The notes beneath the pieces are model-generated. The model was not told the origin of the DNA. It was given only the letters and a program-made list of their open reading frames with translations, and ran no database searches. The position numbers and the translations under genes were made by a program. Positions 2,543-46,344 of a stretch of 64,000 nt of DNA are shown piece by piece (the stretch's first letter is position 1; the number at the start of each line of letters is the position of its first letter). Source of the stretch: a virus; the IMG/VR virus record IMGVR_UViG_3300048838_001273, positions 14,902 through 78,901 of that record. One strand, 5' to 3'.

Positions 2543-3442
2543 CTATTTAAAAAAAGGTTTCTTTTCTTCTGAGTTTTTTTCGTTTCTTTCTTGTTCAAGT
2601 TTTTCTCTTGTTTGCCTGATGAATCTATCTTCTTCAGGTTTACTGGATTTTGCAGGTGCAACCAATTTATCGTATAAACTACTCAAATTACCAACAATTG
2701 ATTCGGGTGGTACTTTATGTTTGTTTGTTGCCGGAATTACTTCAAATTCATTTTTCTTATTGATTGCAACAAGATAATTGTTTGGTTTTTTCTTCCACAT
2801 GCCCTTAACAATATTATGCAATTTCTGAATATCTGCTGCAGTTTCTTTTCTATTTGCCTTATTTGCGTTATAAAACCTCTGCCACTTATCTGTTTGTGTG
2901 TCAAATGCCGAAACCTTCCGTGCAACAACATCTGGTTCACCAGCACCACCTGTTTTGGCTTTCAATGGTGGAGTGGTTCTTGAAACATATGCAATTATAC
3001 CACCACCCATTTGTTTGTCAGAACCTTCTTTATATTTCGCTGGAATTATTACATGACCTTCTTCATCCACAAATTTTCTTCCAGTAGGATATACGTTTGA
3101 TATTCTATCTACACGAAATAATCTCCATCCCGGTTTTTCTTTACCATCCAAATCATCTGTCCAGTACTCATGTTCGTTTCTTCCACCTCCCATTCGATAA
3201 GAAACACTTTTATAATTATCTTGCCATGCCCTTAATACCTTATTGCCTTCACTTGTTGTACCCAAAACATAAGGACGTATTGTTCTATTACCTGCTTGTA
3301 TACCATTATCACCAGTATAGTAGATATTTATATACTCGTGGTTCTGAATGGCATCAATAAGGTCATTATCTCCGACACCTTCTTTTAAAAGGTTACGAAA
3401 ATTTTTGATATTATCGAACAATATTTTGGCTTCAGCTAACAT
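2543..3442 (-). CDS. WYL-domain protein
   Basis: INIYY..GNRTIRPYVLG..VLRAWQ..GWRLFRVDRIS is the WYL signature; no N-terminal HTH visible. Confidence 0.75.
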   Translation of the reverse strand: MLAEAKILFDNIKNFRNLLKEGVGDNDLIDAIQNHEYINIYYTGDNGIQAGNRTIRPYVLGTTSEGNKVLRAWQDNYKSVSYRMGGGRNEHEYWTDDLDGKEKPGWRLFRVDRISNVYPTGRKFVDEEGHVIIPAKYKEGSDKQMGGGIIAYVSRTTPPLKAKTGGAGEPDVVARKVSAFDTQTDKWQRFYNANKANRKETAADIQKLHNIVKGMWKKKPNNYLVAINKKNEFEVIPATNKHKVPPESIVGNLSSLYDKLVAPAKSSKPEEDRFIRQTREKLEQERNEKNSEEKKPFFK

Positions 3443-5167: not shown

Positions 5168-8100
5168 TTAATATTCATCACTGTCATCAAAATCAGCATT
5201 TAAATATTCACTGGCTTCGCTTTCAATTTCACCTTCTTGTTCATTGACGTAATCTTCAAACGCTTCATCGGAATGTGGAATTTCGGTAAACATTTGTTCC
5301 ATAGTTAAACCCGCAGGAATGCCATATTGTTTTTTAAATCCAGAAAAATGTTTCTCTCTTTTTTTAGTTTGTGCATCTAAATACAAGTCAGTCTCGGTCT
5401 TTGTAGTTAGTTCAGACATTTCTAATTGCTTGAGTTTATTTTCTTCTTCTTCACGCTTTCTGTCAAGTTCCAATTCAACCTCACTCTTGGGGATTTCTAT
5501 ATTGGCTCTGACAATCTGCATGTACACCCCATTATATGCACCAACATGATATTCGCTACCGTCTTTAATTAAAACTAAATCACCCTCACCATATTCATCA
5601 TTTATTGATTTGATTCTCGGCTTATTGCTTGCAACCATTTTATCGTTAAGGAATTTCAATGCACTATCGTAAATTTCATAGTATATTTTATTATCCTCAG
5701 TCATTTTAAACCCATTCCATATAAGTCTTGGGTCATATCCGGTTTTATTCCAGAAATCTACCTCAAGTTTTTCCAGATGCATTGCTTCATCATAATTATC
5801 CAAATCAAAATTCTTCAACACCAATTCATCATTTAATGGATTAAAATCACTTTTAATTAAATGACCATCTTTACCGATTTTAACTAAAATCTTGGATTGT
5901 ACTTCGGGTGCAAATCCAACCAGTAGTGATTCTACACGCTTATTGAATCCATCAAGATATTTCTCGTAATTATATTCACCAGTCATATTTGGATTTTCCT
6001 GTAAATCTTCATTTGTAATTAAAGATGCACAGAATCTTTCAACACCAGTTTCCTTATCAGTAATTTTACGTGAATCGCCATGAGATTTCTTATAACCAGT
6101 ATTGACATAATATACTACACTATCCAATTCAGGTTCTTGTGGCATGTAATTAGCAACAAGTTTCGTTATTTCTTCAATACTTGGATTCTCTTTTAGTTTT
6201 TCGAGATTAAGACTATCTTTATGTTTTTCAAATAATTCCCTTGCAATATTTTCACGTTTTTCAATAAGAAGTTCCATGTGTGCTTGCATACCCTTGTCTC
6301 TGCCGTTCTTATCCTTACCTCTTTTCTTGTATGCGCTTATTGTGGTTTTTATCTTACTTTTACTCGCAATCTTTTTCAAAGGAATTCTCATGTATCTGAT
6401 GTCATCACAATAATCATGGTAATAACTAACAAATTCTTTTCCTTTACCATGTAGAATTAAATCCAGACCCTTATCAATGAATTCCTCAATGTATTCAGGC
6501 ATTACTTTGGATTTGATTGTGTTTCCAGTAAGTTTAATTTTTTCTTTTTCCTTACCAGTTTTCTTATCCTTCGACATTGAAAGAGTTGCGTAATTTATTC
6601 TCGAAAGATTTAAACAAGAAATAGAAACACCATCATTATCAACTGCCATGAATGGCTTCGACATTTCTTCATCATTAAACTTCTCAATGAGTGCTTCAAT
6701 TCCGGTTTTACCACCGTATTGCCACATTTCTTCAATTGTACCTTCTACCTCACCATGTACCACGCCTTCATTAGTTACTCTGATTGTTGTTTTTTCGGGA
6801 TAATGGAAGTTAACACCATCAGTAACAGCCAACAATGCCACACAACCGAAATCAGTAAACCAACTGATTGCATGTCTTAATTCAACCCTACCACTACAAG
6901 TAATCCTTGCAGCACAAACATTATCAGACCAGTTAAATGAAACACCTGAACCCAAAGCACCAAACAATGAGTTGTTCAGAATCTTAATAGGTAACTGTTT
7001 GATTTTCGCCATCGCACCTTCTTTCCCGGATATCTCACCATTAATATATTTTTGGTGTATTTCATGGTCGATTTCCTTTAGAAGTGTAACTTCCTCATTA
7101 TTAAGTTTACTACCATTTGCCAACTTTTTGTAAATGTTACGTGTTGTTGTCAAATATAAAAGCATTTTTTTCAAAACACCTGTGATATCAAACATCGGGA
7201 AGATATCATGTGTTAATTGAAGCATCGGGTAAAGAGATGCAAAGTCGATTTTTATAATTCTTTCAGTATAGCCTGATTTAAAACACCTTGCCAATCCACC
7301 GGAAAATCTTTCGGGTTTATCGCAATGAGGAATAGCCAAATCATTTTCATAACTCCAAGCAGTCATCAATAAGTTCCAAATACCAGCACTACCCATCGTA
7401 CAAATACGCTGATATGTGGTTGGAACTATTTTTGCCAACATGAATGATGACTGATTATAAAGTTCATCGACTTGTTCGGTTTCCCAAAGGTCATCAAGCA
7501 AGTATTGCTTTACAAGTTTTTTACCGCTAATAAATGTTGTAAGTTTTTTCGGTACTGCGACCTCTCTAAACCAACCAACAAATGATTTATTTTCATCCAA
7601 ATGCCTTTTCTTATATGAACTATATTCCCCATCAGTTAAATTCGATTTACTGGTTTGCAGAATATATAGTTTTTTGGCAACATCCTGATATTCATCAGGT
7701 ATTTGAACATAATTGTTTGTTTCATCAATAAGGAAAATCTTATTTTCGGTGTAAAATCTACCAATTGAATTGTCTTCACCGTCAATATACGTTCTATTGT
7801 CTCTTGCAACCTTTTCAAACTTCGCAATATATTTTAATCCTGTTTCTTTTAAATCAGAGTTTACTGCTGCAGTTCTTTTTGTGGCATGTAATATATCAAT
7901 TACTGAATATCCCCACATTTCGGTTGCGGTATACTTATCAGCAGTGTTACCATATTTAACACTAACATTACCCCTTCTTTTAAGAGGCATTTCCTCTTTT
8001 AATGAGGTGGGTACACCGGATAAATCCATTTTGAGTTCCTTGGCTCTACCCAAAATAAAGTCGAAGTCAAAACCTTCAGAATAATACCCCGAAATAACCG

Positions 8101-9685: not shown

Positions 9686-12505
9686 CTATTTTCTATGTTT
9701 TTCCTTAATTTTATTTATTACATCACTAAGTACTGATTCACTGACGTTTGAAGTATAATCTTCGTTATCAATAACCTTTACGATTTCTTTTCTTTTACTC
9801 TCAATCGAAGAAAACACATAATCATCAATGGTATCAGGGAAAATCAACACGTAAATATTAACAGCAGATTTTTGTCCAATTCTATGTAAACGGTCACTAA
9901 CTTGGTCATATTCGCCCACACTATATGGTAGTGTCATTATAAATAACTTACTTGCTGCTGTCAGGGTAAGACCATAATTACAGGTTTGAATTGAACCCAA
10001 AAATCCTTTAATTGTGCTATTAATGTCCTGAAATATTTTAACAATTTCTGCACGTTCTTCAACGCTTTGGTCGCCAGTGTGTAAGGCAGCAACATCTCCA
10101 AGTCGTTCCTTTAATTCATATAGGCTTTCCTTGAAGAAATCTACAACCACCACCTTTTCTCCGGTTTCAAATATGTTTTCAATTAATTCAATAACATGCT
10201 TTATCTTCAATTGTGCCAAGTATTGTCTTAAACGAATCATGGTAGTCAATGGATTACCAGTGGGATGAATTACAAATTCATTTGCAACACCTGCTTCAAT
10301 TTCATTATAAATTTTAGCTTCCTCATCAGTCATTTCCAATATAATACGCTGATATGTTTTATCTGGAAGGTCGGTAAGTACTTCGAATTTTCTTTTTCTA
10401 TGTGTATATGGCGCAATTTTATGATAAAGTTCTTCAAGTTTTTGTTCCATACTATCGGTAATATAACCCCAACCACCATACACATCATATGTCATTCCGC
10501 AATAATATTCGTAAAAATATTTCTTTGTTGCGAAGTCAACGGGCGATATTTGATTTAAAACCGTGTATAATTCGTATGCTCTATTCGGTGCAGGAGTACC
10601 GGATAAGAAAATCTTACTTTCTTTATTGTTCTTAAAAATATCTTTTTTAAAAGTAGATTTGAAGTTTTTAAATGTATTTGCCTTGGTGTTCTTTAATTTC
10701 TGACTTTCATCACAAATAACAGCATCAATCTCACCGATTTTTAACTTTTTCCATTTAGTTAGGAATTTTTCTTTACTTGAGGGATTAAAGAAGTCATAAT
10801 TAAGTATTACATACTTTGCATCTTCAATACCACAAGTATTTTTCTTCCAGTTTACAATATGTGCATTACTATTTGTAAACTTCTGTACCTCATTATAAAA
10901 GTTAAATTTAAGTGAGTTAGGTGTTACTACCACTACTTTCTCAAAACCATTCATTTCAACGTAAAGAATGCTTGAAAGTGTATTGTGTGTTAAAATACAA
11001 TTATTAGTACAATATAAATGGTCATCACTATCAATTAAAATACATTGTGCTTCCATTTTTCCAACATATTTAACATCAACAATTGCTCTGTTCGGTGGAT
11101 ATTTTGTTGTAGCAACAAAGGTTTTAATTTTTCTTTCAAGTTTAAATGGAATAAATTGTGCTGGTAATTTTATATGTAATCTATAATATAATCTATTTTC
11201 ACCTTTATATTTAACCCATTTTTCTGTTAATCTGCCAATACCACCTAACGATTGTACTATAAATTGCACATCATTAATTAATTGTTTTGATGCCAAGGTT
11301 AGTTCAACTATTGAATCTTTTCTTGAATGTCCGTCTGTATCTAAGATACCTTGTAGTATTTCAAGTCTTTGGTGTATTGATGAAAACTTATAATCATTTG
11401 GGATATATTTTGTATGTGAATTACTACCTTTCAATCCATATTTCTTCAATTCTTGATTTATGAGATTATTTTTACCATCGGCAGTTAAATAATAATCTTT
11501 TACTGACTTACCATTAATTACCATATTATGATTTTCAGGTAACCGCAATGACATTTCATTAATTAATTCTACATCCATAGAAGAAAAACCAATACCATTC
11601 AAAACAGTCAGAGACCCATCACCCAATAAACAACCTAAAATATATGGGTCGATTTTCAACTCTCTTTCTTCAAATTCTATTGGCTTAACAATTGGTATAT
11701 ACCACTTATTATTACCATTCTCGAATTGTAAACCTTCATCCATAATTTCTCTGAGAGTTTTCGTCATAAATGGGTTTCCACGCCAATTACGAATATAAGT
11801 ATTCACATTCCAAAGATGCTCATCACATGAACGTGCAGTAACACCATCATTAAATGTGATTTCATAAATATCTTTTAATCCCTGTGGATATACACCTAAA
11901 ACCTTCTTAGGCTTACCATCGCTACCAATCACGAAATCATCAATTTTGATATCACCCATTCTAACCAAACCATTTGGTGTAACCAATTTAGAATCAAGTG
12001 GTTCGGCTTTACCCAATCCCATTTCATGGGAAATCAGCGTGTTACGGGTAACGTTCATGAACATTCCGGCAACAATTTGATGTGGATAGAGTTTTACATC
12101 TTCTCTTAATAAAGCATGACATTTTTCAGAGTACTGAACATATGTTTCTTCGAGTTCTTTTTTATATTGTACCCAATGTTCTTTCTTTATGTTAAGGTCT
12201 GCAATAAATTTGCGTTTTTCTTCTTCCCTGACCTCAATTTTCCTGATTTGCTGAATAAAAACTTTACGACTGTCTTCATTGCCGAAATCAAAATGAATTT
12301 TATTTGAACCCTTGTATTTCTTGATTATTGCAAATAAGGAAGGTGTAGTAACTTCCCATGCCATAGCTGCAGGACTCCATTTACGGGTTTCATCCGGGAG
12401 TTCTTTAATGCGTGCAATTAACTGGTCATTGGGTGAAAAACGAACGTAATACGCTAATCTTCTTGGTATTCTTTCGCAATGCACTACAAAAATTGGTTCA
12501 AGCAT
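9686..12505 (-). CDS. SNF2/SWI2-family (HARP-like) helicase containing an intein
   Basis: LYPHQ, HEMGLGK|T (Walker A split by the intein), ICDESQ, LSGTP..N, GLTLTAAS, QVSDRLHRIGQ. Confidence 0.9.
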   Translation of the reverse strand: MLEPIFVVHCERIPRRLAYYVRFSPNDQLIARIKELPDETRKWSPAAMAWEVTTPSLFAIIKKYKGSNKIHFDFGNEDSRKVFIQQIRKIEVREEEKRKFIADLNIKKEHWVQYKKELEETYVQYSEKCHALLREDVKLYPHQIVAGMFMNVTRNTLISHEMGLGKAEPLDSKLVTPNGLVRMGDIKIDDFVIGSDGKPKKVLGVYPQGLKDIYEITFNDGVTARSCDEHLWNVNTYIRNWRGNPFMTKTLREIMDEGLQFENGNNKWYIPIVKPIEFEERELKIDPYILGCLLGDGSLTVLNGIGFSSMDVELINEMSLRLPENHNMVINGKSVKDYYLTADGKNNLINQELKKYGLKGSNSHTKYIPNDYKFSSIHQRLEILQGILDTDGHSRKDSIVELTLASKQLINDVQFIVQSLGGIGRLTEKWVKYKGENRLYYRLHIKLPAQFIPFKLERKIKTFVATTKYPPNRAIVDVKYVGKMEAQCILIDSDDHLYCTNNCILTHNTLSSILYVEMNGFEKVVVVTPNSLKFNFYNEVQKFTNSNAHIVNWKKNTCGIEDAKYVILNYDFFNPSSKEKFLTKWKKLKIGEIDAVICDESQKLKNTKANTFKNFKSTFKKDIFKNNKESKIFLSGTPAPNRAYELYTVLNQISPVDFATKKYFYEYYCGMTYDVYGGWGYITDSMEQKLEELYHKIAPYTHRKRKFEVLTDLPDKTYQRIILEMTDEEAKIYNEIEAGVANEFVIHPTGNPLTTMIRLRQYLAQLKIKHVIELIENIFETGEKVVVVDFFKESLYELKERLGDVAALHTGDQSVEERAEIVKIFQDINSTIKGFLGSIQTCNYGLTLTAASKLFIMTLPYSVGEYDQVSDRLHRIGQKSAVNIYVLIFPDTIDDYVFSSIESKRKEIVKVIDNEDYTSNVSESVLSDVINKIKEKHRK
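10982..12007 (-). mobile_element. Class 3 intein with LAGLIDADG homing endonuclease (342 aa)
   Basis: Starts with Ala (AEPLDS) after GLGK and ends THN before Thr+1; block B CDEHLW, block F AQCI, block G LTHN; LAGLIDADG motifs LGCLLGDGS and LQGILDTDGH. Confidence 0.88.
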
Positions 12506-14381: not shown

Positions 14382-15707
14382 TTATATTAATGAACTTGTT
14401 TTTAATAATGTTAAATATCTATTTGTTGATGTTGCAGTACCAGTAGAAGTTCTCCATCTGATTTCAACGGTTGCTGTTGTTCCTAATGTTATTGGATAAC
14501 CAGCAATAACGTGAGTGGCTGCAACATTACCTTGTGTTGCACCTCTTCTAAACATCATTTCACTATTGGTTTGAGCAACACCACCAATATAAATTGTTGT
14601 ATAAATTTGAGCATTTGAACTACCATGCTGCACCCAATTACCATAATTAAGTAAATAAGTACCTGCTGGTACATTTGTTATTTGCATGCCGGTTTGTAAT
14701 GTATCTGTTGTGCTTGTTGTTGTTGCTGCACCAGCACTTGTAGCATTTAAAACTACCATTGGGTGTGTATCAACAAATTGTTTATCAACAAGTGTTCTGT
14801 CATCATAACTACCACTTAAATCTGTTGAATATTTCGCCAGTCCTGCCATATTGGTTGCGCCAGCAATACCCACACCACCAGCAACAGTTAAAGCACCTGT
14901 TGTCGGTGATACAGATGCTGTTGTCATTGGTACGATTGCTGTGGTGTCCGTTATTCTTAATTTTTCAACAGTATCAACAGTTCTTCTTCTGATTGAAAAT
15001 GCATCATTTGGTGTTGTATCTCCATCCAAATACATGTCCCACCAAGCATTACCTGCGGTAGTTGGTGTATTACCTGTGCCCCAAACGAATTCAACAGCAG
15101 GGTCTCCACCAACACCACCAACTCTCCAAACACGAATGACGGCATTTGTATCAATTAGCGATAATGTGCGAGGTACGTTCCCCGGTGTGTTTCCCCTTAA
15201 TCTATCTACATTAACTGAATCACCAAAAGCAACTTTACCAAGACCCAACAATCCCAAATTATCGTTCGAAACTAAACCAGTTAATCCGCTTGTATTGAAG
15301 TAAAGAATATTATCAACAGTATTAACAATAAAAACTGGATTAATGCCGTCAACTACATTAAAATTACCTGTCATAGTATCACCACTCCGATTAACCTTAG
15401 TGTTTTCTAAATTAATTATTGCTGTTGTTGTGTTTCCACTGAAATCAGTAAAAATATCATAAGTAACACTATCTTCAGATGTTGGTGGTGGCGAAATTTC
15501 CTTAACATATTCATTAACTGTTTGTTCTGTATTAAAAACAATAGTTCCACCACTCTCTCTATATAAATAAAGAGGTTGAATATCTGGAATAAAGAAATCG
15601 ATTAAAATCTCACCAGTATCTGGTGGCAAAGGAGCAAAACTATTATTGCTCCTTGCTACCAAAGTATTATTATATTCAGTATTATATAGAAAATATTCTA
15701 ACGCCAT
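14382..15707 (-). CDS. Tail fibre-like structural protein
   Basis: Thr/Gly-rich; KVNRSGDTMTG and TTGALTVAGGVGI fibre motifs; N-terminus paralogous to 15715..18876. Confidence 0.65.
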   Translation of the reverse strand: MALEYFLYNTEYNNTLVARSNNSFAPLPPDTGEILIDFFIPDIQPLYLYRESGGTIVFNTEQTVNEYVKEISPPPTSEDSVTYDIFTDFSGNTTTAIINLENTKVNRSGDTMTGNFNVVDGINPVFIVNTVDNILYFNTSGLTGLVSNDNLGLLGLGKVAFGDSVNVDRLRGNTPGNVPRTLSLIDTNAVIRVWRVGGVGGDPAVEFVWGTGNTPTTAGNAWWDMYLDGDTTPNDAFSIRRRTVDTVEKLRITDTTAIVPMTTASVSPTTGALTVAGGVGIAGATNMAGLAKYSTDLSGSYDDRTLVDKQFVDTHPMVVLNATSAGAATTTSTTDTLQTGMQITNVPAGTYLLNYGNWVQHGSSNAQIYTTIYIGGVAQTNSEMMFRRGATQGNVAATHVIAGYPITLGTTATVEIRWRTSTGTATSTNRYLTLLKTSSLI

Positions 15708-40394: not shown

Positions 40395-41492
40395 TTAAAG
40401 ACTAAATCTTTCTTGTTTTCTTGCTTTCTTCCTGAGTTCATTTACCTCACGAAGTGCATTTGGGTCGAACCTGTCACGTTTAACAACACTTACTAAGTGG
40501 TTAAATTCGTTTTCAGTAATTACCTGACCAACGTACCCTTCTGTTTTAAGAACAAAAGACTTTGGTGCAGTTCTTGAAGTTGACTGTCCTTCAGTATCTG
40601 CAGTTGCATTGAATGTAAGTTCAAGAAGTTCCTGAATCTTTTCATGCACGCTTGCGGTCATGGTCTGCTTTACTTTCTTCAAAGATTTTTCAAGCAAATC
40701 AATGATATTATCCTGATGACTTTTCTTCATTTCATTGTATGTTTCGGTGAAAACATTCATTGAAGTCCTATTCTTTAACTCGCTGATAATTGCAAGTGCA
40801 CCGTAACAATCACGAATCATCAAATCCCAAACCTGTTCAGCGTATGTGAATGAAGGAAATTTATCGACTGCGACAATTTCACCATCAATCAACACAACAA
40901 TACCGATAAGATTTTTTGGACGTTCGAAGTGTGCAATGAACTGTTCGAGTTTCTTGTCATACTTATTAAAGTAAACGTCCAAGTAATTACCGGAATTACA
41001 CTGAGTATCCTGTCCCAACTTCTGAATAGCAGGATAGATGTTACCGTGACCTGATGTTTGACCAACGGCATCGAATAACATTTCACGCATGGTTACTGGA
41101 ATCATACGGAATTCCTGAGTACCACGGAAGTGTCCAGTCTGTCCACCCTGTACACAACCAGCATCATGATATGTAGTTTGTGCTTTAGGTTCAACATAAC
41201 CTGCCTTCACCATACCGTGGTTCTGAGCACTCTGTTTTGTCATAACAGCCATCTGAGCAGGAAGAATAACTTCCTTATTCTCTTTATTGGTGAAACTGAT
41301 TTGACCATATGAACTGTTACCAGCAGTCAATGAAGTCAAAGGATTAGCAAAACGCTCGTCCAATGAGAATTCTTTGTCAGTTGTTAAACACACGATTTGC
41401 ATGTTCATAATTGACTGAACGATAATGTTACCTTCACTATCCTTGACAGGACGGCAACCTTTAAGTAATTCTGTGAAATCTCTTGTATTCAT
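40395..41492 (-). CDS. ARPP-like (DUF6569-like) domain protein
   Basis: Pattern Y..I.F.N....VILP......AQNH........CVQ..Q.G and GIVVLIDGEIVAVDKFPS..Y...W..LI..Y recalls ARPP-type domains; recognised by eye only. Confidence 0.55.
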   Translation of the reverse strand: MNTRDFTELLKGCRPVKDSEGNIIVQSIMNMQIVCLTTDKEFSLDERFANPLTSLTAGNSSYGQISFTNKENKEVILPAQMAVMTKQSAQNHGMVKAGYVEPKAQTTYHDAGCVQGGQTGHFRGTQEFRMIPVTMREMLFDAVGQTSGHGNIYPAIQKLGQDTQCNSGNYLDVYFNKYDKKLEQFIAHFERPKNLIGIVVLIDGEIVAVDKFPSFTYAEQVWDLMIRDCYGALAIISELKNRTSMNVFTETYNEMKKSHQDNIIDLLEKSLKKVKQTMTASVHEKIQELLELTFNATADTEGQSTSRTAPKSFVLKTEGYVGQVITENEFNHLVSVVKRDRFDPNALREVNELRKKARKQERFSL

Positions 41493-41503: not shown

Positions 41504-43138
41504 TTAAGCGTTAACACTAATTTTATTTGACCTCTTAACAGGTGCAGCTTCTAAAGCACGAACCTGATTTTCAAGCCACCTTGGGGTATCGATTTCCAAT
41601 AACCTTGCGTTAATCTGTGGCTGAAGTGCAACTGGATTATTGATTGCCATTGTGACAACACCCGAACCCAATTTACGAACATTAGCACCCATTTCAGCAC
41701 TGGTGATTGGTGAAATCTGGAAAATCGGAATGCTCCTACCAGATTCTGCTTGCCAGATTGAAATAACTTCGTTGGTTAGACCATCGTAAGCATTTTCATA
41801 ACCATCAGTTAAGATGAAAATCGCATCATAAGGACGTGCAGTATTTTCTGATTTAAGCAATTCAATGAATGAACTTGCCAAGTCAGTAATTTCGTCACGA
41901 GTCTTAACAAATGTTGCAACATCTGCTGACCTACCCAATACCTTTGCAGTGAAATCAGCAATTGCCCTTGGAGTGTTCTTTGACTCAGCCTTATGACCAG
42001 TCATTGAAGCACTGTCATCGACAACAATACCAATACTCTGGTAGAAGAAACCTGCAATCTTTTTCTTTTCAGCAAGTTTACTAATTGCAACATTCAATTC
42101 AGGTGTGAAACCATTTTCATAACCTGTCTTGTAAAGTGCCATGAAGTCAGTTGCTTTTTCAAGTTCAACATGCTTTTCAACACCCAACTTCGCAGTACTT
42201 TTGGTCTGACGAACCTGCTGGTTAACCGAAGTTACCTTAACATTCTTACGAACCAAAGCCTTTGTTGCTTCTCTCTGAACAGCAGTTGCCCACATACTGT
42301 GGTACTGTGGGTGAGTTACAGAAGAAATTAAACCGAGCAATACTTCTTCCGGTACATTCTGAACATTGGTGATGTCAGTTTTTGCCTTCTGATATTCATT
42401 TAAAATACTGAATTCACTGTAGTCAATACCAGTATCTCTTTTGAAGATGAATAACAATAACTTAAATGCACGAGTTGTGTCACCGTTAAAGTATTTCAAA
42501 AGCAAATCATTTGCAATACCCATTTCCTTTTCAGTTCCAATAAGAAGGTTGTTACCATAAGTAACGTACTTCTGTGCAATTGAAAGCAGAATTGAAGTTC
42601 TTTTTGTTCCATAGGTGTGCTTCAAAATATTTGCAAGTTTGTTACGGTACTTCAATGAATAGAATTCAAGGTTTGACTGACCCCAAATGAAGCCGAGTAC
42701 AATTTTCCTTGACCTTTCGTTGTTAATCCTTGATTTTTTCAAATCAATGAAAAGACGTAACGCATAGGTAATACCATTATCAGAACCTGCAAGGTTATTC
42801 AACGCACTAAGAACTGCCTTATCAGATAATCCATTATCATACCAGTCAATTGGATTAACTATATTACAAGCACCACCCCTATAGGTTTCTTTGAATTCGT
42901 TAAGCAATACCTCAGACACAAATCTTCCGGTAGCACCTTTTTGGCTTGCAATAATTAATGGAAGTTCCTTTGAAAGTTTATACATACTCCTAATCTGAGT
43001 CTGTAATGCCTTCATCTGTTCATCCTTTTTGTGGTAGTAAGTTGCTGAACTTTTGCTACCTGATGCAATTGTTAAACCTTCAATTAATGACTGCTTAACG
43101 CTTGTAAGCATCTTCTGTGTTAATACCAATTTTTCCAT
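41504..43138 (-). CDS. Helical N-terminal + vWA-domain protein (Ro60/TROVE-like architecture)
   Basis: C-terminal vWA MIDAS elements IVVDDSASM, T-D-L and FILTDGYEN; long basic, likely helical N-terminal region (RINNERSR, LKYRNKL); 544 aa, similar in length to Ro60. Confidence 0.6.
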   Translation of the reverse strand: MEKLVLTQKMLTSVKQSLIEGLTIASGSKSSATYYHKKDEQMKALQTQIRSMYKLSKELPLIIASQKGATGRFVSEVLLNEFKETYRGGACNIVNPIDWYDNGLSDKAVLSALNNLAGSDNGITYALRLFIDLKKSRINNERSRKIVLGFIWGQSNLEFYSLKYRNKLANILKHTYGTKRTSILLSIAQKYVTYGNNLLIGTEKEMGIANDLLLKYFNGDTTRAFKLLLFIFKRDTGIDYSEFSILNEYQKAKTDITNVQNVPEEVLLGLISSVTHPQYHSMWATAVQREATKALVRKNVKVTSVNQQVRQTKSTAKLGVEKHVELEKATDFMALYKTGYENGFTPELNVAISKLAEKKKIAGFFYQSIGIVVDDSASMTGHKAESKNTPRAIADFTAKVLGRSADVATFVKTRDEITDLASSFIELLKSENTARPYDAIFILTDGYENAYDGLTNEVISIWQAESGRSIPIFQISPITSAEMGANVRKLGSGVVTMAINNPVALQPQINARLLEIDTPRWLENQVRALEAAPVKRSNKISVNA

Positions 43139-43167
43139 AATCTATATGTGTTTAAAATTTCGTTCTG

Positions 43168-43198
43168 CAATAATAACAATTATAATTCAATTTACAAA
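43168..43198 (-). promoter_or_regulatory. Possible Bacteroidota-type promoter for the vWA-ARPP pair
   Basis: TTTG-N19-TATTATTG (one mismatch to TAnnTTTG). Confidence 0.4.
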
Positions 43199-43259
43199 AA
43201 AAATCAAAAAAAAAATGGGTGAGATGAAACATTTCTGCTCCAAGTCCCCACCCATTTTT
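43196..43259 (-). terminator. Terminator closing the RNA cluster
   Basis: AAAAATGGGTGGGG..GGAGCA-GAAA-TGTTTC..TCTCACCCATTTTTTTTTT. Confidence 0.6.
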
Positions 43260-43292
43260 CATTTTGGAATACTCTTCTTCTAAAAAAAAAGA

Positions 43293-43383
43293 GAAGAAGT
43301 TCGGTTGTATTTTGGTAAGTTTGTCCCGCCTCTCATGAGCGGGATTACATTTTTCAATTTACTGTAAACACAGCCAGTTCTTC
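43293..43383 (-). ncRNA. Structured repeat RNA unit 4 (Y-RNA-like stem with internal hairpin)
   Basis: GAAGAA-CT-GGCTGTGTTT-ACAGTAAA...AAATACAACC-GAAC-TTCTTC; internal TCCCGC/GCGGGA hairpin; followed by T9. Confidence 0.65.
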
Positions 43384-43593
43384 CACCAAATTTCTTGTTT
43401 TTGAAAAACTCAGTACTTCTACTTAGAAAACCATTCTTAACCTCTCGTGCGTTTAAAACGCAAATTCAAATGTTAGGTGGTATGCCCCTTTTTTGTTAAA
43501 AAATTCTGATACCAACAGCCAAAAACTTTAAGCAGTGGGGTTTGCTTAATATTAAATAAATCTTATTTGCTAACCGTCACCACTTAATAACTT

Positions 43594-43733
43594 AGGGAAC
43601 ATTTTAAAAGTATTTGTTGTTTTTAATGCAAGTTTAACCGACTTGTGACTTAACCGCTTGTCTAATTTTCAATTTTGGCTGAAAATGAAGGATTCGAACC
43701 TCCGTATTACTGTAAACACTTTTCGTTTTCCCT
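43594..43733 (-). ncRNA. Structured repeat RNA unit 3 with a circularly permuted tRNA-Asn-like body
   Basis: Motif stem AAAAGTGTTT/AAATACTTTT encloses T-arm GGAGG-TTCGAAT-CCTTC, ATTTTCA-G-CCA, linker, TGAAAAT, D-arm and anticodon arm CAAGT-CGGTTAA-ACTTG. Confidence 0.75.
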
Positions 43734-43799
43734 TTGTACTTTAAAGAACGTTACCCCGAAGTTTGTGTTGCCACAGGGACAACGGGGAATTATAATTTT

Positions 43800-43875
43800 A
43801 GAAGAAATTCGTTAGTCTTGTGTTGTAAGTGTCTGATTTACCGTCAAATTTACTGTAAAAACTATCAGTTCTTCT
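43800..43875 (-). ncRNA. Structured repeat RNA unit 2 with an anticodon-like hairpin
   Basis: AGAAGAA-CT-GATAGTTTTT-ACAGTAAA...AAGACTAAC-GAAT-TTCTTCT; internal TTTGA-CGGTAAA-TCAGA. Confidence 0.65.
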
Positions 43876-43880
43876 TTTTG

Positions 43881-43953
43881 TAGCGGGAGAGGGATTCGAA
43901 CCCCCGACCTCTTGGTTATGAGCCAAGCGAGATACCACTTCTACCATCCCGCA
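43881..43953 (-). tRNA. tRNA-Met(CAT), probably initiator-like
   Basis: Complete cloverleaf TGCGGGA..CTTGG-CTCATAA-CCAAG..GGGGG-TTCGAAT-CCCTC-TCCCGCT-A; 1:72 mismatch; CCA not encoded. Confidence 0.88.
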
Positions 43954-43991
43954 ATATAAAGGGTTTTTGTGAAAAACCCTTAAAAACTTTG

Positions 43992-44127
43992 TGGGGAGAA
44001 CAGGACTCGAACCTGTAATCTATTGATTTCAACTCAATTGCTTTACCTTTACTGAAAACACTACGAGTTCTCTCTGTGAAGAGAGCAGTGAGATAGTATT
44101 TCTTGTTTTTGTTTTTGCTATCTCCCC
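43992..44127 (-). ncRNA. Structured repeat RNA unit 1: tRNA-like molecule with a ~69-nt motif insertion in the D-loop
   Basis: Acceptor GGGGAGA/TCTCCCC-A, anticodon arm ATTGA-GTTGAAA-TCAAT, T-arm ACAGG-TTCGAGT-CCTGT; the insertion carries the repeat motif with its halves swapped. Confidence 0.72.
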
Positions 44128-44173
44128 ATGTAAAAAAATTCATTTCTTAAAAGAACGTTGTCCAAAGACTCTG

Positions 44174-44204
44174 CAAATATAAAACACCTTTTTTTAATAT
44201 GCAA
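44174..44204 (-). promoter_or_regulatory. Bacteroidota-type sigma-A promoter of the RNA cluster
   Basis: TTG-N20-TATATTTG, followed ~15 nt downstream by a boxA-like AACGTTCTTT. Confidence 0.72.
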
Positions 44205-44298
44205 GTGTTTTTGAAAAAAAATAAAAATATTTTTATAGACCTCTGGAAAAATAAATACTTGATGTTTTACAAAAAGTTACATTTTTTTATAAAAATTT

Positions 44299-46344
44299 TC
44301 ACTCTTTTTTTATAACATTCTGTCTTTTACGTAATTGCGCCAACTTTTCTTTTATAAATTTTTCATTATCTTGTGGTGCATCCGGGTCAATTAACCTGTC
44401 ATTAACATCTATTTCAGTATTAATATTTTTTTGAACTGGTGGTAAAATTTCTTTTCTTTCTTGAATTTCGGGTAGTGTTTCAACTGATTCTTGCACAATA
44501 TTAGGTACGTCTTTTAACTCGACTTCCTTTTCAATGACATTAGTATAAAAGGTTTCACCAGTCCAACTATCCATTATAAAATCAGTATCTGTTGTGTTTA
44601 TTCCCTCATTTACTCCCTCACTTACTCCCTCATTTACACCATCACTTACACCATCAGGTTCGTCAGTAGCTTCTTCATCTATTTCTAATATACTTCCAGT
44701 ACTCGGCACTACAATATCTTCTACAGTCTCAGGCACATTATTTCCAGTTTTACCGGACATCAAATCTTCTAAACTATCTTTATACGATTGAATTTTACCG
44801 GGTTTTACAGCATCATTTGGAGTATCATTTACGGCATCATCTTTCAGTTTTCCCTCAATTATATTTCCATAATACTCACTAACAGGTATATGAATAGCAG
44901 TACCTGTCTTATTTGTCTTATCTTCCAATTTGTCAATATCTGGAGTATCGTGGTGCTTGATGTTTTTACTCATCTTGCTATACTTATACCTGTCATCTTC
45001 GATTTTGATTTCCATTGTATCATTATTGAAGATACAGTTCGTAAAAGTCTGACCGTCTTGTGCAAACCTTGCTTTAATAATTCTGATATTAGCAAGATGT
45101 GCTTCTTTTTGTTCAGGAGTTTTTGCCACACTCATGAAAAAGTGTGCTTTTTGTACTCTCTTTATATTACCACCAGTTTGATGAACCTCAACGAATTCAG
45201 AATCGAAACCACTACGGTTTGACTGAATTGCAGTCCATGCAGGAATATTCAAATCTCCGGCAAGTGCTTCGAATGATTTAACAATTACAAGTTCAGCTTC
45301 ATTTCTATCTGCAGTTTTTTTATGAGATTCCAAACAATCCAGATAATCCAAAACAATTTCATCAAAAACATATCCATATTTTTTCTGATGCCTTGTAATC
45401 CAGTTACGAATATCCATCATAGTGGTGTTCTCCTGACTAAATTTCTTAATCATGAGTTTACCTCTACCCCTTTTTCTTAATTCATCGGCTTTTTCATGTG
45501 AAAGTTTAGTTACTCTCTCATTTTCATCATCTTCATTTAACTGGCTCAACTTAGATTTTGTCCAAATTGTAAAGTGCTTTCTCTGAATCTGTTCTACAGT
45601 ATCTTCGAAGACGATTTGAAGTACGTTTTTACCAACTTCAAGTCCGGTATTTGCTATTTTTGTTAGTAATGTTGTTTTACCAACACCCGATGGTGTTAAT
45701 ATTACACCAATTTCTCCCTTACCTAACCCACCACCAGTAAGTACGTCAATAACTTCAACACCAGTGGGTATTGTTTCTCTGAATTCTTTTCTTAATGCCT
45801 TTTCAATGTTATCTGTAACTTCAGTACCATAATCTTCTTCTTCACCAATATGTGAGATTTTCAAGAATTTTTCTTCAATATAACCAAGAGTGTGTTTATG
45901 TTTTATTTCACCACTTTTGGTTTTAGCTAAAATATATTCACCTATCTTCCTGTATTCCTGTTGTTTAATGAAATTATTGGTTGCCTTTTGTACAACAATA
46001 CCGTCATAAAGCATTTCTTTATTTAAAACCCTTTCATTCCATAATTCAACACGTTTAATTACAGCAAATAAGGATTCTTCCTCGATTATGTTGTTCGGAG
46101 TTTTATAAGAATTAATTGCAAGATGTATACTTTTATTTTGAAGATTTGGTACTTTTTCATACTCTTTATAATACTCCAAAATGATGAGAAACAGCCTTTT
46201 TAAATAAGGGTCATCAAAGTATTCTACTTCTAAATTTGGTATTGTTTTTTCTGCAAACTCCGGTTCTACAAGCAATTGCCACATTAGGCTTTGTTGAAAA
46301 TCAGGACCGAGATATGCAGAAAATGTATTTGTACTATCACTCAT
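44299..46344 (-). CDS. DnaB-like replicative helicase (T4 gp41-like) with acidic C-terminal extension
   Basis: TIPTG..GGLGKGE..TPSGVGKTT (Walker A), VLDYLD (Walker B), WTAIQSNR, IKARF. Confidence 0.88.
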   Translation of the reverse strand: MSDSTNTFSAYLGPDFQQSLMWQLLVEPEFAEKTIPNLEVEYFDDPYLKRLFLIILEYYKEYEKVPNLQNKSIHLAINSYKTPNNIIEEESLFAVIKRVELWNERVLNKEMLYDGIVVQKATNNFIKQQEYRKIGEYILAKTKSGEIKHKHTLGYIEEKFLKISHIGEEEDYGTEVTDNIEKALRKEFRETIPTGVEVIDVLTGGGLGKGEIGVILTPSGVGKTTLLTKIANTGLEVGKNVLQIVFEDTVEQIQRKHFTIWTKSKLSQLNEDDENERVTKLSHEKADELRKRGRGKLMIKKFSQENTTMMDIRNWITRHQKKYGYVFDEIVLDYLDCLESHKKTADRNEAELVIVKSFEALAGDLNIPAWTAIQSNRSGFDSEFVEVHQTGGNIKRVQKAHFFMSVAKTPEQKEAHLANIRIIKARFAQDGQTFTNCIFNNDTMEIKIEDDRYKYSKMSKNIKHHDTPDIDKLEDKTNKTGTAIHIPVSEYYGNIIEGKLKDDAVNDTPNDAVKPGKIQSYKDSLEDLMSGKTGNNVPETVEDIVVPSTGSILEIDEEATDEPDGVSDGVNEGVSEGVNEGINTTDTDFIMDSWTGETFYTNVIEKEVELKDVPNIVQESVETLPEIQERKEILPPVQKNINTEIDVNDRLIDPDAPQDNEKFIKEKLAQLRKRQNVIKKE

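Follow-up and report, generated by a model that had tools for sequence, protein, structure and literature searches.

Within a 64,000-nt stretch of viral DNA (positions 14,902 to 78,901 of IMG/VR record IMGVR_UViG_3300048838_001273; hereafter the window), we identified a tRNA-shaped RNA, named E1, whose D loop is expanded by a long structured arm and whose gene lies upstream of a gene encoding a Ro60-like protein. Ro60 proteins and their Y RNAs have been described in animals, in some bacteria and in a small number of phages. Our analysis indicates that E1 is most likely a new form of Y RNA, and not a broken or an ordinary tRNA. Specifically, we propose, with a probability of about 50%, that E1 is a non-decoding, Y-RNA-like tRNA mimic of unusual topology, in which the arm, internal to the molecule, would be the docking site for the Ro60-like protein.

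The window is part of a 78.9-kb viral record (completeness 22%, CheckV), and the relatives of this phage have genomes of 299-328 kb. All genes in the window are on the minus strand. E1 is the first RNA of a 1.16-kb non-coding block located between a DnaB-like helicase gene (44299-46344) and a 544-amino-acid open reading frame (ORF; 41504-43138). Three sibling RNAs encoded in the same intergenic block are referred to as E2, E3 and E4.

E1 is a tRNA-shaped RNA with an arm at the D-loop site

The coordinates given by the original prediction held: E1 is a minus-strand RNA that runs from 44127 to 43992 and is built from the following elements.

43992..44127 (-), E1, tRNA-shaped RNA of 136 nt including the discriminator A (nt 1 is 44127; the discriminator A is 43992)
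44121..44127 (-), acceptor 5' strand GGGGAGA (nt 1-7), 7/7 pairs with 43993-43999
44117..44120 (-), U8 A9 G10 C11, tRNA core nucleotides (UAGC, nt 8-11)
44103..44116 (-), A/C-rich linker AAAAACAAAAACAA (nt 12-25), A/C-rich in all homologues
44093..44102 (-), helix A 5' strand GAAAUACUAU (nt 26-35), 10-bp helix
44086..44092 (-), internal-loop strand CUCACUG (nt 36-42), the 7-nt side of a 7/5-nt internal loop
44070..44085 (-), helix B CUCUCU/AGAGAG, 6 bp, with loop UCAC (nt 43-58), from fold and covariation
44065..44069 (-), internal-loop strand AACUC (nt 59-63), A59 A60 C61 invariant
44055..44064 (-), helix A 3' strand GUAGUGUUUU (nt 64-73), pairs with GAAAUACUAU
44039..44054 (-), tail CAGUAA and D-loop/D-stem remnant AGGUAAAGC-A; C74 A75 G76 U77 invariant; aligned by Rfam to the tRNA D arm
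44022..44038 (-), anticodon arm AUUGA-GUUGAAA-UCAAU, perfect 5-bp stem
44000..44016 (-), T arm ACAGG-UUCGAGU-CCUGU, perfect stem
43992..43999 (-), acceptor 3' strand UCUCCCC and discriminator A; CCA is not encoded and CAA comes next

As had been predicted, the acceptor, anticodon and T stems are perfect, and ~70 nt lie between the UAGC of nt 8-11 and GGUAAAGC (nt 81-88), at the site of the D loop. The D arm itself is reduced: only G10-C88 and C11-G87 are able to pair, enclosing a loop of ~75 nt, which suggests that G10-C11 and G87-C88 form a 2-bp remnant of the D stem. G81 and G82 correspond to G18 and G19 of tRNAs, and the variable region is 5 nt long (AGAUU). The minimum-energy fold of E1 is a cloverleaf with the arm (-36.6 kcal/mol, z = -3.5; none of 200 shuffled sequences was as stable), in which the insert folds into helix A, the internal loop and helix B, as anticipated; this arm is kept across the homologues described below. 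An A/C-rich run similar to the linker is also found 5' of helix A in other copies of the arm.

Analysis of the full E1 sequence by ARAGORN returned no gene, the neighbouring tRNA-Met alone being called, and the Rfam tRNA model matched E1 over model positions 9-63 only, with 29.4 bits against a gathering score of 29. After deletion of the insert in silico, a check proposed with the original prediction, ARAGORN called a tRNA with anticodon UGA in 81 of 128 junction choices.

The structure of E1 is conserved in related phages

Homologous loci were found via the helicase and via the exact arm pattern in IMG/VR, and gave 43 distinct full-length E1 homologues in related ~300-kb phages. It should be noted that pairing of the acceptor (7/7) and T stems was a selection criterion for this set, which makes the evidence from these two helices partly circular; no such criterion was applied to helix A, helix B or the anticodon stem, each of which covaries. 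In the proposed structure, 96.7% of cells are paired, compared with 86.3% in column shuffles and ~50% with slid partners, and both-sided changes occur in 20 of 31 pairs (147 cells), a level that none of 500 shuffles reached. By helix, changes on both sides are present in six of the seven acceptor pairs, three of the five anticodon-stem pairs, four of the five T-stem pairs and all four scored pairs of helix B, where pairing reaches 98.8% of cells and the loop differs in both length and sequence among homologues. Helix A has 90.9% of cells paired and three pairs changed on both sides, for example from C-G to U-A in the UAUGCGA subfamily.

Individual nucleotides are conserved as well. All 43 homologues share U8 and A9; G10 and C11 are kept in 38/43 and 37/43, and G81 and G82 in 42/43 and 40/43. 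The T loop is invariant or nearly so (GUUC.A..C invariant). Within the arm, invariant or near-invariant positions are A29, A31, A59 A60 C61, U68, U70-72 and C74 A75 G76 U77. CCA is encoded in 7/43 homologues.

A covariance model built from the 43-homologue alignment (R1) scores E1 at 156 bits, its sole strong match in the 78.9-kb record, and also matches two members, with 69.8 and 64.4 bits, in the 462-kb sequence of an uncultured phage (LR756500.1) in which the counterpart of the 544-amino-acid ORF has only 27% identity. One of these members (L117:365-501) has the loop GUUGAAA and carries the arm between nt 9 and a D-arm-like stretch, GCUU-AAUUGGUA-GAGC, which was read by eye and was not reproduced by the single-sequence fold; after removal of the arm, ARAGORN calls it a tRNA with anticodon UGA. 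Single-sequence minimum-energy folds of these distant L117 homologues proved unreliable; their membership is based on the covariance model together with the ARAGORN call after arm deletion.

Selection on structure rather than decay, as the original prediction had argued, is thus borne out by the 96.7% of paired cells and the both-sided changes in 20/31 pairs. That E1 might be a decaying tRNA pseudogene with a chance insertion would fit the missing ARAGORN call and an Rfam score only at threshold. We regard this as vanishingly improbable, as 43 homologues and a distant clade display compensatory changes in every helix and invariant loop nucleotides; the covariation data exclude it.

The homologues also point to an additional pairing, helix D, in which nt 4-10 (GAGAUAG) are complementary to nt 32-38 (CUAUCUC), at the end of helix A and in the internal loop. 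Both sides changed together in three lineages (GAGUUAG/CUAACUC, GAAGUAG/CUACUUC and GGAAUAG/CUAUUCC), and this co-change is absent in two others. Among the 38 main-family members, with phylogeny ignored, nt 4-7 and nt 35-38 form 141 of 152 pairs against 134.4 +/- 1.3 in shuffles, a value reached by 4 of 20,000 shuffles; significance is confined to this main-family test, the statistics being weak on the whole alignment. A subfamily of five members uses the internal strand differently, pairing it with nt 9-14 (AUGCGA/UCGCAU), an arrangement that is compatible with the acceptor stem and makes a pseudoknot with helix A. Helix D of the main family competes with acceptor pairs 4-7, and it may represent a folding intermediate or a switch.

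The arm is a portable module

A profile of the 3' half of the arm, derived from the homologue family, matches only four sites in the 64-kb window, each of them within this block and minus-strand (E values: E1, 6e-9; 43383-43359, 2e-5; 43873-43850, 3e-4; 43720-43706, 0.007). Together with the ordinary tRNA gene of the block, the RNAs at these sites outside E1 are as follows.

43880..43953 (-), ordinary tRNA-Met(CAU), called by ARAGORN and Rfam; same block as E1
43799..43877 (-), E2, stand-alone arm, end-closed, with a 5-bp hairpin and loop CGGUAAA; profile match
43594..43733 (-), E3, circularly permuted tRNA-like gene whose two ends form the arm; profile match
43293..43385 (-), E4, stand-alone arm with a G+C-rich hairpin; profile match

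In E2, E3 and E4, helix B has no loop and is closed by the two ends of the RNA. These four matches support the claims of the original prediction that a single motif is closed by a tetraloop in E1 and by RNA ends in its siblings, and that its halves are swapped, as in a circular permutation. The sequence (G)AAC-U is common to all arm copies. Both E2 and E4 carry a small hairpin with a 7-nt loop, and E2 has a family of 74-78-nt homologues in relatives; indeed, each sibling type is a conserved family there. The E3 gene runs in the order T arm, acceptor 3' strand, G-CCA, short loop, acceptor 5' strand, D arm and anticodon arm, so that its acceptor stem is closed by a GCCA-containing loop and the arm stands at the open variable-arm position. 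We considered E3 as a two-piece transfer-messenger RNA (tmRNA) and rejected this assignment, since complete D and anticodon arms are present. A hammerhead core within the arm, searched for by eye, was also rejected: CUGAUAG in E2 is off at two core positions and has no Rfam ribozyme match.

The range of arrangements is wider than originally claimed. In locus L082 (4965-5108), a loop-capped arm occupies the variable region of a normal-order tRNA, which ARAGORN calls as a tRNA with anticodon UUA once the arm is removed. In other relatives, the arm forms the paired leader and trailer of complete tRNAs (L104:4296-4424, L002 near 6380-6510 and L117:1843-1988). The arm is a module in its own right, with at least five attachment points on tRNA bodies, and it also occurs on E2 and E4, which are not tRNAs.

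This distribution brings up the main rival to our proposal, which we consider unlikely: the arm may be a processing or splicing signal that is excised, functionally similar to the archaeal bulge-helix-bulge (BHB) motif, with an endonuclease cutting both internal-loop strands and a ligase joining the products. E1 would then give rise to a class I tRNA(UGA), the permuted gene to a circle opened into a normal tRNA by RNase P and 3' processing, and flanking arms would be trimmed from around tRNAs. The internal, permuted and leader/trailer positions of the motif mirror those of the BHB in archaeal and red-algal tRNA genes (PMC3978253, PMC4033280), deletion of the arm yields ARAGORN tRNAs for E1, L117:365-501 and L082, and in E3 the encoded CCA is followed by a short linker, as in permuted tRNA genes. 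Moreover, ARPP, the product of the gene downstream of the 544-amino-acid ORF, is a predicted enzyme of unknown activity (PMC9503650). However, inspection of the folds revealed no 3-4-3 BHB geometry, the junctions flanking instead a 10-bp helix and a 7/5-nt internal loop. The splicing endonuclease (PF01974) is absent in five relatives, four of them 91-100% complete, with positive controls; the RtcB ligase (PF01139) was unmatched in four relatives and reached only a sub-threshold 15.5 bits (E = 5.7e-4) in a 61%-complete record, although a host RtcB is possible. Excision would also leave poor products: in the clade of the window, a tRNA body with a D stem of only 2 bp, and for E2 and E4 only a 17-nt hairpin. 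Many of the cargo loops lack U33, and the phages already have full sets of ordinary tRNAs. A group I or group II self-splicing intron was rejected, as no Rfam intron match was obtained and the insert is only ~70 nt long.

Linkage to a Ro60-like gene

Two protein-coding genes lie immediately downstream of the RNA block.

41504..43138 (-), 544-amino-acid Ro60-like protein, putatively a helical repeat ring with a C-terminal vWA domain (predicted model); proposed partner of the arm
40395..41492 (-), 365-amino-acid ARPP-1 domain protein (Pfam PF20208, E = 1.6e-15)

Sequence searches with the 544-amino-acid ORF against PHROGs, Pfam (including the TROVE model) and PDB gave no match. Its predicted model matches Ro60 over the whole length, and this fold comparison, together with a protein-atlas lead, constitutes the only pointers to Ro60.

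In the window, E1 is located 854 nt upstream of the Ro60-like ORF, on the same strand. In four near-complete relatives (91-100% complete, 299-328 kb), strong R1 matches (94-148 bits) share the strand of the one Ro60-like gene and occur nowhere but 495-1304 nt upstream of it; the remaining matches score at most 46 bits, and those inspected (in the 120-160 kb arrays of relative G001) are ordinary tRNAs. Of 28 loci long enough to be informative, 27 have the order helicase, RNA block, Ro60-like gene and ARPP gene. Among relatives without a Ro60-like gene, L003, L011 and L012 have no arm copy, and L008/L010 have one core-pattern match. The linkage of the E1 family to the Ro60-like gene is exclusive.

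Two loci that depart from this organization deserve mention. In L012 (7207-7411), tRNA-Met is directly followed by the last 40 ARPP codons (88% identical), which looks like a clean joint deletion of the RNA block, the Ro60-like gene and most of the ARPP gene. In L114 (1-2200, minus strand), a tail-fibre-like gene directly adjoins the RNA block and the E1 acceptor now has a G1-U72 wobble pair.

Since the ARPP gene is always paired with the Ro60-like gene, linkage alone does not distinguish between the two proteins as partner of the RNAs. It is therefore conceivable, though in our view quite unlikely, that the arm is retained and functional with another partner, be it ARPP, a host factor or another RNA, or that it is an RNase III-type site that separates polycistronic units. 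L114, which keeps RNAs but has neither gene, would be in line with this, and RNase III sites of phages likewise look like a stem interrupted by an asymmetric internal loop. On the other hand, the strong conservation of primary sequence (GAAC-U and GUGUUU-N-CAGUAA) suggests recognition by a specific protein over RNase III cleavage, and Ro60 is the sole protein family known to use tRNA-like RNAs encoded next to it.

The anticodon loop and decoding

The original prediction held that E1 does not decode. The canonical tRNA-Ser(UGA) of a relative and the aberrant loops of 11/43 homologues make this plausible; E1 itself, however, has U33, and its loop is conserved at a distance. In E1, the loop GUUGAAA contains U33 and A37 in the normal 7-nt length, and the same loop is found in 22/43 homologues. 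U33 in a 7-nt loop is present in 32/43; the remaining 11/43 lack U33 or have a 6-nt loop. Read in the standard register, 30/43 loops contain UGA or CGA, both serine anticodons. Similar loops with G33 are found in the sibling RNAs (CGGUAAA, CGGUUAA). The complete relative G001 encodes ~45 tRNAs and a tmRNA in arrays, including a canonical 90-nt class II tRNA-Ser(UGA) with a long variable arm and the loop CUUGAAA, from which the E1 loop differs at position 32 only (G32). Because this relative has a long-arm tRNA-Ser(UGA), 11/43 members lack U33 or a 7-nt loop, and the D stem retains two G-C pairs only, E1 probably does not decode.

A very unlikely alternative is that E1 is a working, aminoacylated tRNA that keeps the arm and reads UCA/UCN codons, the arm replacing the variable arm recognized by seryl-tRNA synthetase or shielding the molecule from anticodon nucleases; changes in the loop are known to help phage tRNAs escape nucleases. 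The acceptor stem, the T loop, the G18 G19 equivalents, U33, A37 and the 7-nt loop are all intact in E1, serine anticodons prevail in the family (30/43) and recur in the distant clade, some members encode CCA, and the loop equals that of the tRNA-Ser(UGA) of the relative except at position 32. Nevertheless, the arm leaves the D loop and not the variable region, the same arm is carried by E2 and E4, which cannot be tRNAs, and a quarter of the loops in the family are unable to make a U-turn. In addition, a canonical tRNA-Ser(UGA) is already present in the relative, and the E1 gene is found outside the tRNA arrays, solely beside the Ro60-like gene.

The tRNA genes of these phages show further peculiarities. 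Arrays in the relatives contain same-isoacceptor pairs of a normal and an elongated (84-96 nt) tRNA for Pro, His, Gln, Trp, Cys and Asn (in G001, a relative of L004; L121:2564-2659, 2817-2902, 3267-3351 and 10867-10950; L122:6751-6834 and 7846-7932), and a tRNA-Met of 87-92 nt with a long variable arm is present in L003, L004, L008 and L012; both kinds are class I tRNAs with extra arms. Suppressor-type anticodons also occur in the clade, namely CUA (amber), UCA (opal, in an arm-flanked tRNA) and UUA (ochre, loop CUUUAGA, in arm-bearing RNAs), at L122:19544-19617, L001:4465-4539, L082:4965-5108 and in the E3 homologues of L025 and L071.

Comparison with known RNAs and proposed role of E1

Ro60 proteins bind tRNA-like Y RNAs encoded adjacent to them, in phages as well (PMC4201824, PMC12135203, PMC7824862), and in a few jumbo phages a tRNA-like RNA has been noted as the partner of a TROVE protein (PMC7824862). 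Adjacency to a Ro60 gene on the same strand is the criterion by which the YrlA RNAs of bacteria and phages were defined (PMC4201824). Like E1, the YrlA RNAs that accompany Rsr/Ro60 (Chen et al., 2014, PMC4201824; preprint 10.1101/312249) are small, adjoin a Ro60-type gene on the same strand, combine a tRNA-like domain (T arm and elbow nucleotides) with a separate stem module, and occur as several RNAs per locus. In M. smegmatis, the 7-bp acceptor stem of YrlA undergoes cleavage by RNase P and addition of CCA, a parallel to the permuted E3. The Ro-binding stem of YrlA arises from pairing of the two RNA termini, and a loop caps its acceptor-like stem, whereas E1 is the reverse, with free acceptor ends and an internal, capped arm; the end-formed stem that E1 lacks is present in E2, E3 and E4. 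E1 also differs from YrlA in keeping a full anticodon arm, and the Ro60-like protein of the window, unlike the YrlA partners, escapes the Pfam TROVE model.

Other systems share part of these features. The Ro60 locus of Thermus phage phiLo, with Yrl1 and Yrl2 (PMC12135203), resembles that of E1 in having more than one partner RNA directly upstream and in the succession of stem, internal loop and stem; its RNAs, however, have no tRNA body and consist of a simple stem that is closed by the RNA ends and has CGAA as a bulge. This tetranucleotide is present in three of the four arms of the window, though not in E1, and is not conserved in homologues. The intron-containing, split and permuted tRNA genes of archaea and red algae (PMC3978253, PMC4033280) likewise have a portable motif at non-canonical sites, including the D arm; in contrast, the arm described here has no BHB geometry, the phages have no splicing endonuclease, the motif also occurs without a tRNA, and the host is presumably bacterial. 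Finally, class II tRNAs (Ser, Leu, Tyr) and tmRNA, like E1, add a long helical arm or domain to a tRNA core, and the E1 anticodon loop matches that of tRNA-Ser(UGA) at 6/7 positions. The arm of E1 differs from theirs in leaving the D loop, in its size of ~60 nt and in its conserved sequence, and E1 has no mRNA-like part; both a tmRNA and a class II tRNA-Ser are encoded at other sites in a phage relative. Our literature search found no description of a normal-order tRNA with such an arm, nor did we find an Rfam family for one.

Several observations weigh against E1 being a Y-RNA-like docking RNA. E1 lacks the GNCGAAN0-1G motif of YrlA (RF02553), and Rfam searches of positions 43000-44400, at gathering scores and at E <= 10, matched only tRNA-Met and a partial tRNA, with no Y RNA, YrlA, tmRNA, intron, ribozyme, GOLLD or ROOL. 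The Ro60 assignment derives from a mediocre model, with a predicted local distance difference test (pLDDT) score of 63.5 and a template-modelling (TM) score of about 0.4. The one exception to the conserved gene order, L114, keeps E1, E2 and E3 but no longer has the Ro60-like gene, the ARPP gene or the interior of E4. The loop GUUGAAA is conserved even where the Ro60-like protein is only 27% identical, and traits of a working tRNA are kept (U33, A37, the 7-bp acceptor stem, the G18 G19 equivalents and, in some members, an encoded CCA). The L117 copy, called as tRNA(UGA) by ARAGORN once its arm is deleted, resembles an intron-bearing tRNA. Lastly, no contig bridges the junctions of the E1 insert in the four RNA libraries described below, a result that is uninformative on excision.

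As a docking RNA, E1 would be produced and used as follows. It would be co-transcribed with tRNA-Met and its three siblings from a promoter region upstream of 44127, and the stack of acceptor stem and T arm would let RNase P and 3'-end enzymes release it like a tRNA. The D-loop arm (helix A, the GAAC-U internal loop, helix B and the CAGUAA tail) would be retained and would serve as docking site for the Ro60-like ring or for a Ro60-like/ARPP pair. The rest of E1 would display the elbow of a tRNA together with an anticodon stem-loop imitating that of tRNA-Ser(UGA) (UUGAAA, with G32), and this tRNA surface could tether the protein to some tRNA handler or act as bait for it. Candidate targets would include a defence nuclease of the host that cleaves tRNAs, an enzyme of tRNA repair or modification, or an exonuclease, as in the particles of Ro60, Y RNA and polynucleotide phosphorylase.

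More tentatively, E1 and its siblings could constitute an undescribed class of Ro60-associated RNAs of huge phages, in which the arm (GAAC-U ... GUGUUU-N-CAGUAA) is grafted interchangeably onto tRNA bodies, in E1 onto a complete tRNA with processed ends, the anticodon loops act as baits for tRNA-targeting defences of the host, and helix D is a switch for release of the 3' end. In such a class, the Ro60-like/ARPP pair would ride on a molecule accepted by RNase P, the CCA-adding enzyme, anticodon nucleases and perhaps a synthetase.

Organization and surroundings of the RNA block

A blastn search of the block against 50,697 phage records matched tRNA-Met only, indicating that E1 is carried by no cultured phage in that set. 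In a promoter scan, sigma-70 matches were not above chance, and a terminator scan called none. Reading of the sequence revealed two signals that these consensus scans missed: a TAtaTTTG box upstream of E1 (44174-44181, minus strand), which we take to resemble the -7 promoter element of Bacteroidota, and a GGGUGGGG...CUCACCC hairpin followed by U10 after E4 (43205-43255, minus strand). Together they would delimit one transcription unit, and the Bacteroidota-type promoter suggests a bacterial host.

No sequencing run contained more than 14% of the sampled words of the block. We compared the contigs of four RNA libraries with the block, keeping in mind that contigs in RNA libraries do not prove transcription. 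These contigs cover E3, part of the E3-E4 interval, tRNA-Met and, in one run, the 3' end of E1. A contig of ~150 nt covers E3 almost from end to end in RNA libraries of three different studies, and in one library a contig matches the final 71 nt of E1 with full identity and continues into the neighbouring sequence of a relative.

The block and its flanks contain other elements of note. A 10-bp hairpin, AAGGGUUUUU-CAC-AAAAACCCUU, lies between E1 and tRNA-Met (43962-43987, minus strand) and could be a processing site or a weak terminator; no counterpart was seen in the blocks of relatives read by eye, with no systematic check. Between E3 and E4, a conserved non-coding stretch (43400-43590, minus strand; GGCUGUUGGUAUCAG ... 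GGGGCAUACCACCUAACAUUUGA ... GCGUUUUAAACGCACGAGAGGUUAAGAAUGGUUUU) has no Rfam match, is partly covered by RNA-library contigs (43446-43529) and recurs in L004, L011, L014 and L114, of which L011 has no Ro60-like gene. Another conserved RNA-like element, GACCUAAGAAUCC ... GAUGAACAUGAAAAUGCUGG ... AUUACAUUCCAAGUAGUGC(C/A)UCACAUAA, is present in the block of relatives (L004:6530-6680, L007:4040-4170, L011:5900-6020, L014:6105-6230 and L096) and missing in the window. In the 3' part of the helicase gene (ORF 44299-46344), 12-nt tandem repeats of the TTACTCCCTCAT type are found at 44598-44655 (plus-strand coordinates), and similar repeats occur in differing numbers in relatives (ACTGAGGGAACA in L005 and L006), indicating that the length of this linker region varies.

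Significance

Our analysis ties a much more divergent Ro60-like protein, invisible to Pfam, to RNAs in which one conserved arm is joined to tRNA bodies in five or more ways, including a normal-order tRNA with free acceptor ends. To our knowledge, all earlier descriptions have the Ro-binding stem built from the termini of the RNA. The R1 covariance model provides a means of searching for such RNAs in metagenomes, where tRNA finders and Rfam miss them. If the arm were excised, it would represent a bacterial-virus analogue of the intron and permuted-gene processing of archaeal tRNAs, which would be at least as surprising. If, as we propose, the arm is a docking site, Y RNAs can be true tRNA chimeras, and the action of huge-phage Ro60 particles against tRNA-cleaving defences of the host would become a testable idea.

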